Below, in pieces: positions 9,001 to 12,000 of a stretch of DNA of 33,630 nucleotides (its first letter is position 1; each line of letters opens with the position of its first letter). Origin of the DNA: a virus (lineage: Duplodnaviria; Heunggongvirae; Uroviricota; Caudoviricetes); IMG/VR virus record IMGVR_UViG_2534681675_000029, positions 1 through 33,630 of that record; one strand, 5' to 3'. Position numbers: made by a program.

Positions 9001-12000
9001 CACTGTCTCTGCACCTTATAAAGCGGGTGCCGGGCGTGGAAACCCGAAATTCAATATAGAGCACAACCGCGCTCATGCGGTTTTTTCGTGTCATGAGCAT
9101 CGTTACGCCCAAATTATGGTGGGGCGTGCAGGGCCAACTTCGGTTGGGCCGGGTTCTATGTTGACCGGTATTTCCACCCCTGTACGTCTCACCACCTATA
9201 TGGTCGTGGAAAGCCTTGGTGGTGAGTTCATTGAATTCAACATAGGGGCTGTCACCATGACTACCACCACTACTCACCCGTTCCTCAAAATTGAGATCGT
9301 CAACGGCAAGGCTGTTACGCTGTCACTTTTCGAATATCTCAAACTATTGCGCCTTGCTGGTGTTCCGGGTTATATTTCTCGCGTTGCTGTAAATCCAGCA
9401 ACCGGGCTTCGCATCCCGAAACATCACACAGGGCTGACACGCCATAAGCGTGTTTTTTTGTCTACGCACGTCTATTCAATGGCGGCTCAGATGGGAGCTT
9501 CTTCGGAAGCGCCGGTTTTCCCTTGTGTGTCCGGTAATGCGAATCCTGTCTGGGCTGCCACCAATCATGGTTTCGCATCCGTGGGTGGTAGCTGTAAAGC
9601 ACACACACAAGGGGCTGTCTCCATGACTACCACCACTACTCACCCATTCCTCAAAATTGAGACCGTCAACGGTAAGGCCGTTATTTTCTCCCTGCATGTT
9701 GCCTGCCATTTCAAGCGCATGCACCAGAACATTGTCGACAAAATCGAGTATCTGAACTGCTCGCGCGAGTTTTTCACCCGTAATTTCATACCCGGCACTT
9801 ATCACCTTTATGGCGATTCTTTGCGTGGTTATTACATAACTCTTGATGGTCTGATGATGCTTCAGCTTGGGTTAAGTCTGCGCACAATGCGGTACTACGA
9901 GAGCTGCATTGAAGCATTCCATGAGGCCGAAACCAGCCTGACTCACACTGCTTTCCGCTGTAATCAACGGGAGGTGCGCCCATGATTCGCCGCGTCGTTA
10001 ATTCCCTGTATCACCGATACAACCGTTGCCCCCGTGTGGGGCAGTGGTTCACCACCAGCAACGGTCACGTTCTGCGGGTTTGCCTGGTCAATACAGAAAG
10101 CCAGAAGGTTGTCTGCCAGGTTCAGAGACGTACTCATACCCTGAGTTATCCGCTGGTGGCGTTTCAGTCCGGAAAAATGTTTAAACGCCTGGGAGGTGGC
10201 TATGCGTCCGTCTGATCTTCTGCTCGATTTTGGACATCCGGTTGCTTATTACCCTGGGCTCGTTAAATACATGGGAAGTCCGCACGCTGTTATTTTCTTT
10301 GGTCAGATTTTTTACTGGCAGGATAAAGCACATGCAGCGGAAGGCGTACATAAAACGCGTGAAGAGATACAACACGAAACCGGGCTTACATTTGAACAAC
10401 AGGCTGTAGCGCGTAAGCATCTTGTGTCCAGAGGCATTTTGGTTGAAACCAACAAGCGTCTTGAGCACAAAATGTTCTACCGTATAGATTGTGAGCGCCT
10501 TAATGAAATTATCAATGAAAACAATCAGTTTTCCCGAAATGGGGAAACCCGTTTTCGGGAAACTGTAAAACCCAATTTCGCGGAGGAGGGAAAGCCTTCA
10601 CCGCGGACACGGGAAACCCCTCGCCGCGGAGAAGGGAAAACCAATTTCGATCTTACAGAGAATACAACAGAGATTACTTCAGAGAATACTACAGAGAGTA
10701 AAAACACTATTGGCGCATCCGCTGACGCGTCTGCACCAGCACGTTCTGCCCGACAGGAATATTCACCGGAATTTGAACAGGCCTGGCAGGAATATCCCAA
10801 ACGTGCTGGTGGCAATTCCAAGTCAGCTGCTTTCAAAGCCTGGAAAGCCCGTATCAGGGAAGGTGTGACACCCGAAACCATGCTTGATGGCGTGAAACGC
10901 TATGCCGCCTGGGTACGTGCTACAGGAAATACCGGCACACAGTTCGTGAAGCAGGCAGCGACGTTCTTTGGCCCCGATCGTCACTTCGAAGACTTCTGGC
11001 AACAACCAGCCGCTCCCGGAGGTGGGCGACAGCGACAGGTCGATGTCCTGTCTGGCCTGGGAGCCATGTCTGACAAATTCGGTAAATCCAGTGACAAACT
11101 GACATTCTGAGGTGACAGCGATGATGACGTTTAACCTTCGTGAACAACAAAAAAGACTACAGGCGCGAATGGATGAGTTACGGGCAGAGATTGCATTTGC
11201 TCAGAAGAGCGAAAAGCCATGGCCTTATCGTTCCTGCCTGATGCGTGAAGGTCGCGGATATTGCGAAAAACACGGTAAATACAGCACGCATATACTGGTG
11301 TGGAGTGATCGTAATGGCGAGGACAGAGAAAAAATTTCATGCTGCCCTGACTGCTTGATCGCAGAGGCCAACGATTTGACCATGGAGCTGTCGTCCCTCA
11401 AGGCGGAAGAGCTGACTGATAACGCCGGAATAGCCCTGCGTTTTCGGGACTGTGAGTTTGATAATTATCTGGAGGTTAATCCTGACGCAGCCAGAAATCT
11501 TGCGGCCTGTCGTCGCTATGCGGAGAACTGGCCAGATATGCTGGAGAACGGTACCAGTCTTGTTATGACCGGCAGTTGCGGTACCGGGAAAAATCATCTG
11601 GCGGTATCAATGGCAAAACACATCATCCGTAACTATCTGGCCAGTGTGGAGATCATCGACGTGATGCGCCTTACCCGTGCTGTGAAAAACTGCTGGCGGA
11701 ATGACAGCGAAAAAACAGCGGATGAAGTTATTGAGTATTATGCGTCACTGGATTTGCTGATCATCGACGAAGTCGGCGTTCAGTTTGGTAGCGTGGCTGA
11801 AATGGCTATTTTGCAGGAAATTATCAATGCCAGGTACGAAAGTATCTTGCCCACCATCCTGATCAGCAACCTTTCACCGGAAGAGTTGTGGGCGTTCATC
11901 AGCCCCCGCATTGCCGACAGGATCACAGACGGGGGACGCAACTGGTTGTCGTTTAACTGGCCCAGCTATCGTTCTCGTATCAGAGGTGTGGCTGCATGAC

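Follow-up and report, generated by a model that had tools for sequence, protein, structure and literature searches.

Two tandem IsrK/C4 RNA cassettes of different specificity as probable switches upstream of a short Rha-type gene in a Shiga toxin-converting lambdoid prophage

The 33,630-nt stretch of IMG/VR virus record IMGVR_UViG_2534681675_000029 (Caudoviricetes), which as a whole is called the window below, is a Shiga toxin (Stx)-converting lambdoid prophage in which the start of a short Rha-type gene occurs twice in one long open reading frame (ORF), named 'ash family protein' (342 aa) by the Prokaryotic Genome Annotation Pipeline (PGAP). The region very probably holds two tandem, differently keyed IsrK + C4 switches of the P1 immI, P4 CI and Gifsy-1 IsrK type, followed by the short Rha-type gene. 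The true repeating unit is a cassette of ~366 nt, composed of a promoter, an IsrK-like leader, a C4 RNA, target sites, and a Shine–Dalgarno (SD) sequence with its ATG (Table 1). The direct evidence is the identity of the RNA families, the covariation of their structure, the cassette-specific complementarity, the missing coding signature over the RNA genes, and the modular variants of the locus.

Four Rfam matches, all to the + strand and all clearing the gathering scores by a wide margin, lie in the order isrK (9011-9087), C4 (9112-9199), isrK (9383-9458), and C4 (9475-9565). Both isrK copies (RF01394; gathering score 50 bits) end with an intrinsic terminator, and both C4 copies (RF01695; threshold 45 bits) match the model at full length, from position 1 to 87. 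The related c4-a1b1 model (RF03163) covers the 5' half of each isrK copy and scores 46.5 bits in copy 2 and 23.8 bits in copy 1 against a threshold of 46.7, so that copy 1 fails on c4-a1b1 alone. The C4 RNAs contain a long closing helix around two hairpins, with covariation, and two single-stranded elements with complementary sites on either side of the C4, the downstream site being located at the next ribosome-binding site (RBS). The C4s also carry sequence hallmarks of RNase P processing, namely a 5' helix end with AU|GGU and AU|GGC and a 3' end with CCACC. The 100 codons upstream of the first gene start and the continuation of the first copy, which the first-pass annotation had described as open but unrecognisable, are thus two isrK/c4-a1b1 + C4 antisense RNA gene pairs.

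The two single-stranded elements of C4, the hairpin-2 loop and the junction, are called here by their structural names; in the P1 terminology, in which b' occludes the RBS (PMC5320573), the loop is probably b' and the junction a'. A duplex scan of the region with the whole C4 is uninformative because it ignores the RNA's own fold, and loop-only and junction-only tests were used instead. In the window, each C4 is complementary to the sites of its own cassette over 11-12 nt and 7 nt, versus 6-9 nt and 4-5 nt for the other cassette. C4-1 is complementary to isrK-1 over 12 nt and 7 nt and to initiation region 1 over 11 nt and 7 nt, versus 6 and 5 nt on the cassette-2 sites, and C4-2 is complementary to initiation region 2 over 12 nt and 7 nt (-20.2 and -8.7 kcal/mol). 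The two cassettes, judged by these sequences, carry different loops and junctions that appear non-interchangeable. On its own, initiation region 1 (9200-9275) is predicted to form a hairpin of -29.3 kcal/mol with 9201-9209 paired with the ATG region, which resembles the translationally inactive 'structure A' of Gifsy-1.

The same specificity is seen throughout the family. A pattern scan of viral contigs yielded 120 loci, and our own C4 covariance model R1, which was built from 50 distinct sequences including both window copies, finds 134 C4 copies. In the 50 distinct homologues, 99.5% of the cells are paired and 14 of the 27 pairs show a compensatory change, versus 34-48% paired in slid controls. 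The 111 unique cassettes contain 54 distinct loops and 26 distinct junctions. For the 54 loops, the longest complementary run has a mean of 9.87 nt in the own downstream region versus 5.78 +/- 1.38 nt in those of others; the junctions give 7.08 nt versus 4.63 nt, and the upstream sites behave likewise. The loop-complementary site is found 12-44 nt beyond the C4 match (in most cases 23-34 nt) and always ends in the SD (GGAG, AGAG, or GGGG), with an ATG following within the searched 17-nt window (~5-13 nt in the printed examples). The loop of C4-1 was also found with three junctions (UUUCCAC, UUCUCAC, and ACGCCAA) in viral loci, indicating that loop and junction recombine independently and suggesting a two-part combinatorial specificity code.

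Both promoters in Table 1 are putative and are proposed only from the position of the isrK 5' ends and from conservation. A -10-like hexamer precedes each isrK start by 7 nt. Promoter 1 predicts a start at ~9011, the first base of isrK-1; its two hexamers are invariant in three loci with otherwise differing cassettes, and the homologous PisrK of Gifsy-1 has been shown experimentally to be a promoter (PMC4825925). Promoter 2 predicts a start at ~9383, and its region is 96-98% conserved in two other loci (L053 and L003).

The repeat search found one family with two copies in the window, identical at 69 of 74 nt (93%) and separated by 366 nt (122 codons) from start to start, and the chance expectation for such a match in 2 kb is ~1e-29. 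The near-identical segments of 73 bp noticed in the first pass are therefore confirmed at 74 nt, as are a real SD, ATG, and 18 codons in each copy: AGGGG, 8 nt, ATG (9257 and 9623), and the peptide MTTTTTHPFLKIE(I/T)VNGKAV. Both copies are in one frame of the ORF 8936-9985 (TTG start; first ATG at 8957). The locus is 100% identical in the complete genome NZ_CP169399 of E. coli MFDS1022581 and has many variants elsewhere, and this rules out an assembly artefact of the window. The ~366-nt units are homologous throughout and yet only 52% identical outside the 74-nt repeat, with 46 gap columns. Each copy begins at an SD ~45 nt 3' of a C4, exactly at the end of the cassette-specific target portion.

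As the earlier annotation had noted, the Rha domain follows the second copy only. The 120-aa product alone scores 30.4 bits with Phage_pRha (PF09669; cut-off 29.9) and, inside the 342-aa ORF, a marginal 28.0 bits at residues 245-325. Its relatives are named Rha family by PGAP, and the product itself lacks the C-terminal portion of full-length Rha proteins. The differences at codon positions 1, 2, and 3 (7/4/25 and 2/3/13) form a coding pattern, and AlphaFold2 (AF2) predicts a clear alpha/beta fold, with a block-mean predicted local distance difference test (pLDDT) score of 51-81 (peak 81). The stop codon overlaps the ATG of the next ORF (ATGA, 9982-9985). In the first copy, the stub (…VNGKAVTLSLFEY) runs into the promoter of cassette 2, and the frame continues without a stop through cassette 2. 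In our best reading, copy 2 heads the real 120-aa gene, and modular recombination has left copy 1 as a stub. The second copy forms a small hairpin at 9668-9692 (AACGGTAAGGCCGTT) with ATTTTCT behind it, terminator-like by the scan and a possible attenuation point within the 5' part of the Rha gene; copy 1 has the corresponding hairpin without the T-run.

Comparisons with related loci indicate that the cassettes are modular. The stub is preserved before every second cassette seen and the stub-to-cassette junction is conserved in all two-cassette loci found, while the cassettes flanking this junction vary (at least seven upstream types and three to four downstream types). Other upstream cassettes are present in L053, L125, L126, and L134, another second cassette in L133, and three cassettes in L127; the unit of exactly 122 codons is absent in L002 and P0024. 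Each unit type also occurs elsewhere, alone or with other partners, and stub plus cassette 2 is present in only 9 of 5,426 complete E. coli genomes. In L053 both copies of the repeat share ATCGAAGTC, whereas both window copies have ATTGAGA(T/C)C at that place; the copies within a genome are thus more alike than orthologous copies, pointing to gene conversion or crossover in the repeat. On the best reading, the repeat is the conserved 'payload end' common to two cassettes that otherwise differ, at once a scar and a joint where recombination still operates. The earlier suggestion of a recombination scar holds for copy 1, with its ~27 codons of Rha 5' sequence and relatives that lack or swap the unit, but is only part of the answer. 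Such a short shared gene start can act as a joint for shuffling regulatory cassettes of different specificity between phages.

Several unusual loci were encountered in the course of these comparisons. L127 (NZ_CP028741 2158594-2161764, nt 1-2225) contains three tandem C4 cassettes at 986, 1359, and 1727, and a single open frame (nt 1-1869) spans the three of them as well as the antisense strand of a RelE/ParE toxin-antitoxin pair, ending ATGA-coupled to a 118-aa regulator. Similar and unexpectedly long open frames of 636-642 codons are located over antisense TumE/HVO_A0114 genes in L124 and L126. In a distant, GC-richer lineage (L089, 11005-11470), two C4 RNAs are placed 352 nt apart in a repeat of 107 nt with 90% identity, and a gene start complementary to the loop follows the second copy only. 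We considered this pair as an independent parallel and rejected it; the repeat there is the RNA itself, without a duplicated gene start, and has no bearing on the stub.

By homology with the known systems, we infer repression of initiation, titration by IsrK, processing by RNase P, and any role of read-through. Each cassette would use its own promoter to produce an IsrK-like leader with a terminator and the upstream target sites. Read-through transcripts would give rise to C4, probably excised by RNase P, and the C4 loop and junction would pair with the downstream sites to shut off initiation and probably to promote termination. The IsrK-like RNA, which carries the same sites, would titrate C4 and thereby open the gene start. 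A past recombination would have inserted a second cassette into a Rha gene near its 5' end and left the copy-1 stub, which would now offer a patch of homology for the gain, loss, and exchange of cassettes. Furthermore, ribosome read-through, as with Gifsy-1 orf45, may aid expression of the downstream gene and so keep the frame open.

Some of our results weigh against this reading or limit it. An automatic promoter scan of the + strand reported nothing, both proposed promoters scoring 8/12, below its threshold. Through the shared AGGGG, 9 nt of the C4-2 loop match initiation region 1 (-13 kcal/mol), and the cassettes may therefore not be fully orthogonal. The stub differs from L003 by 2/1/9 at codon positions 1, 2, and 3, and such coding-like substitutions in 27 codons suggest that it may still be translated. 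In addition, 52 of 65 types have a sense-strand frame without stops from isrK to the gene ATG, versus 17 of 65 for the reverse complement (20 of 31 versus 4 of 31 by clusters at 80% identity), and in every tandem locus examined an open frame passes through the cassettes and is fused to the downstream start or ATGA-coupled. Hence the 'Ash' frame is probably translated to some extent, and to call it a pure artefact would be too strong; by analogy with the Gifsy-1 work, it may be kept open for ribosome transit despite its unconserved peptide.

Nested products of 342, 242, and 120 aa from the ATGs at 8957, 9257, and 9623, sharing the Rha domain, are a rather doubtful alternative on the sequence at hand, and one that is compatible with the two-switch explanation rather than opposed to it. 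A different RNA would then gate each start, and either cassette could switch Rha on. The three starts are in frame, those at 9257 and 9623 have the same SD and spacing, each under its own C4 target, and the substitutions in the stub are consistent with translation. In Gifsy-1, translation from the C4 region is required for the downstream gene, and in S. dysenteriae orf45 is fused to anrP (PMC4825925). However, translation from 9257 would have to traverse the isrK-2 terminator and the C4-2 helix, the mRNA would be cleaved when RNase P processes C4-2, and the N-terminal extensions are predicted to be unstructured and are not conserved in sequence.

A speculative extension of the two-switch explanation, to which as a whole we likewise give rather low credence, is that stacked C4/IsrK cassettes of different specificity form a combinatorial, exchangeable lock system with three joint properties. 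First, the stub cassette would be kept since its C4 acts in trans on other phages, silencing the same-key antirepressors of co-resident or incoming phages. Second, ribosomes from the stub would cross cassette 2 and bypass the second lock, giving an OR logic over Rha and the replication genes. Third, the frame over the RNA genes would be selected for ribosome transit and not for its peptide; if true, the 'Ash proteins' would be a large class of translated, sequence-irrelevant leader frames overlapping RNA genes.

The view of the region as a fused protein, offered by the earlier annotation, agrees with PGAP and with many databases. A genuine 342-aa multi-domain Ash-Ash-Rha protein, with the repeat as an internal duplication of a domain linker, would account for the open frame 8957-9985, for the 63.8 bits with Pfam Phage_ASH (PF10554; cut-off 26) in two stretches (residues 15-92 and 139-227), for the ~30 clusters of ~342 aa that share this layout, and for the unusually open sense-strand frames. 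We nevertheless regard it as quite improbable. The Ash stretches coincide with promoter, isrK, and C4 in both window copies, and the most conserved Ash 'motifs', IDSAISGRYTV and APYKAGAG, are the -35/-10 hexamers and hairpin 1 of isrK. Codon-position differences were counted in close pairs among 57 cassettes in which the C4 AUG frame is fused to the downstream gene. They amount to 605/724/598 in the isrK part (31% at position 3) and 914/952/788 from C4 to the ATG (30%), whereas the downstream gene, over its first 60 codons, gives 828/504/2551, or 66% at position 3. The frame itself is also not fixed relative to the RNA. Among 67 cassette types, the C4 AUG frame is fused in frame in 28, stops before the gene start in 13, and is out of frame in ~24, and in L133 and the central L127 cassette the frame in which the long ORF passes through C4 differs, so that the peptide is unrelated. 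PGAP itself splits the ORF or labels it a pseudogene in strain VL46. AF2 gives residues 1-230 a pLDDT of 22-38 and almost no secondary structure, a low confidence that is supportive only, as the alignment is shallow (32 sequences). PF10554 thus lacks, in these cassettes, the third-position excess, the fixed frame, and the foldable domain of an evolving protein. We argue that Ash is translated regulatory DNA/RNA and not a protein domain: because its 'domains' are the translated promoter, IsrK, and C4, the 342-aa protein is largely an annotation by-product. This suggests that most of what is grouped under the Pfam family and the widely used RefSeq name 'ash family protein' is RNA genes in translation.

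A recent simple tandem duplication by slippage or unequal crossing-over, without functional differentiation, fits the head-to-tail order, the 366-nt period, and the 93% identical segment, but is contradicted by the divergence of the units outside it, by loops, junctions, and all four target sites that differ between the units and match within each, and by the occurrence of the unit types elsewhere, and we consider it extremely improbable.

The Gifsy-1 isrK-orf45-anrP locus has the same order as a window cassette: a promoter, IsrK with a terminator, a C4-family RNA, an AUG-bearing leader frame, and an antirepressor-type gene. Its Rfam matches (isrK 34240-34316 and C4 34131-34214) are located just upstream of anrP, and its C4-family RNA corresponds to the orf45/STnc1160 region (PMC4825925; Hershko-Shalev et al. 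2016). Previous work noted that the leader ORF is conserved in nucleotides without conservation of the amino acids, and showed experimentally that IsrK in trans activates translation of orf45 and anrP, that an RNA of ~80 nt is processed from the orf45 region, and that orf45 translation is coupled to that of anrP (PMC4825925). There are also differences. The window contains two tandem cassettes, Gifsy-1 a single one without a duplicated gene start; the gene regulated in Gifsy-1 encodes an ORF6N domain, versus the Rha N-domain only in the window; and orf45 is coupled by AUGA, while the window frame is fused.

In the case of P1/P7, the c4 RNA is processed by RNase P, its two elements pair with the mRNA so that b' occludes the RBS (PMC5320573, on Citron and Schuster 1990), and differences in these elements between P1 and P7 define heteroimmunity (PMC5320573). 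The window resembles immI in a C4 that would be processed from the target's own transcript, in two single-stranded elements with sites up- and downstream, and in the predicted occlusion of the RBS. In contrast to the c4-icd-ant operon of P1, C4 in the window is not separated from the regulated gene by an icd-like small ORF, and this gene encodes a 120-aa Rha N-domain and not Ant. Moreover, the window leader contains an IsrK-type terminator, and two heterospecific cassettes are stacked in one phage. The window locus would work like immI but is not an immI operon by gene content.

P4 immunity uses a CI RNA with seqA/seqC in the same arrangement (PMC4825925). Rfam places isrK/c4-a1b1 at 8615-8705 and C4 at 8420-8507 of P4, on one strand and upstream of the replication genes, and the window cassettes are likewise located upstream of the replication module. 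The P4 output, from a single cassette, is premature transcription termination, whereas the evident target in the window is SD occlusion. PF10554, which matches the window ORF twice over stretches that are RNA genes, also matches residues 22-85 of the obsolete 'cI gene product' in P4 (L128), whose ORF overlies the CI RNA; this P4 member argues against a genuine Ash protein as well. As is established for P4, the cI ORF is not the immunity factor. The P4 epsilon derepression protein (7888-8175) belongs to PF25738 and not to PF10554. A survey of P4-like satellites used PF10554 as the epsilon profile (PMC8628076), and this marker is therefore likely to pick up the CI RNA region instead.

Control of antirepressor-type genes by C4/IsrK antisense RNAs is a known kind of system. 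To our knowledge, the literature searched contains no description of a tandem heterospecific C4 arrangement with a duplicated gene start or of evidence for a non-protein Ash. In studies of Stx phages, Rha/Ash genes at this position are listed as of unknown function (PMC8951638). Reading them as IsrK/C4 switches provides direct, testable hypotheses.

Table 1. Features of the cassette region and of its surroundings in the window.
Feature	Position	Strand	Details
Long open frame	8957-9985	+	Contains all cassette parts
Putative sigma-70 promoter 1	8976-9004	+	-35 TTGATT 8976-8981; 17-nt spacer; -10 TACACT 8999-9004
isrK-like/c4-a1b1 leader RNA 1	9011-9088	+	Rfam isrK, 61.6 bits; terminator scan; complementarity. 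C4-1 sites GTGGAAA 9036-9042 (hairpin-2 loop) and TCAATATAGAGC 9051-9062; terminator 9065-9088 (stem 9065-9082 and T-run; terminator scan)
C4 antisense RNA 1	9112-9199	+	Rfam C4, 82.4 bits; own model R1, 95.5 bits. Hairpin-2 loop GUUCUAUGUUGA 9153-9164; 3' junction UUUCCAC 9171-9177; 3' CACCACC; RNase P-type motif AU|GGU, 5' side, 9116-9120
Translation-initiation region 1	9206-9259	+	C4-1 targets GTGGAAA 9206-9212 and TCAACATAGGG 9237-9247 (overlapping SD); SD AGGGG 9244-9248; ATG 9257-9259
Repeat copy 1	9244-9317	+	SD, ATG, and codons 1-20 of Rha-type gene; repeat search
Rha 5' stub	9257-9337	+	~27 codons (MTTTTTHPFLKIEIVNGKAVTLSLFEY); coding-like substitutions
Putative promoter 2	9347-9376	+	-35 TTGCGC 9347-9352; 18-nt spacer; -10 TATATT 9371-9376
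isrK-like/c4-a1b1 leader RNA 2	9383-9460	+	Rfam isrK, 62.2 bits; terminator scan; complementarity. C4-2 sites TTCGCAT 9408-9414 and CACACAGGG 9425-9433; terminator 9436-9460 (stem 9436-9454 and T-run; terminator scan)
C4 antisense RNA 2	9475-9565	+	Rfam C4, 74.2 bits; own model R1, 73.6 bits. Hairpin-2 loop UUUUCCCUUGUGUGU 9516-9530; junction AUGCGAA 9537-9543
Translation-initiation region 2	9572-9625	+	C4-2 targets TTCGCAT 9572-9578 and ACACACAAGGGG 9603-9614 (overlapping SD); SD 9610-9614; ATG 9623-9625
Repeat copy 2	9610-9683	+	Repeat search
Short Rha-type gene	9623-9985	+	120 aa; Rha N-terminal domain only; Pfam Phage_pRha
S24/helix-turn-helix (HTH) repressor	6677-7372	-
ORF6N + ANT antirepressor-type protein	7876-8730
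Lar	8727-8939		Cassettes follow
Two tRNA genes	17414-17486, 17591-17664		Precede RIP-domain ORF
RIP-domain toxin subunit	17758-18717		319 aa
Small RNA STnc100	19074-19272		Follows RIP-domain ORF

The locus is situated in the early operon, between the repressor/cro region and the replication genes, and its gating would therefore bear on induction and hence on toxin release. The short Rha gene is followed by a 77-aa ORF, coupled by ATGA, and then by an O-like gene, a DnaC-like gene, and DnaB. The ORF6N-ANT gene, two genes upstream of the cassettes, is without a C4 or isrK of its own; the C4-controlled gene of Gifsy-1 is of the same ORF6N type.

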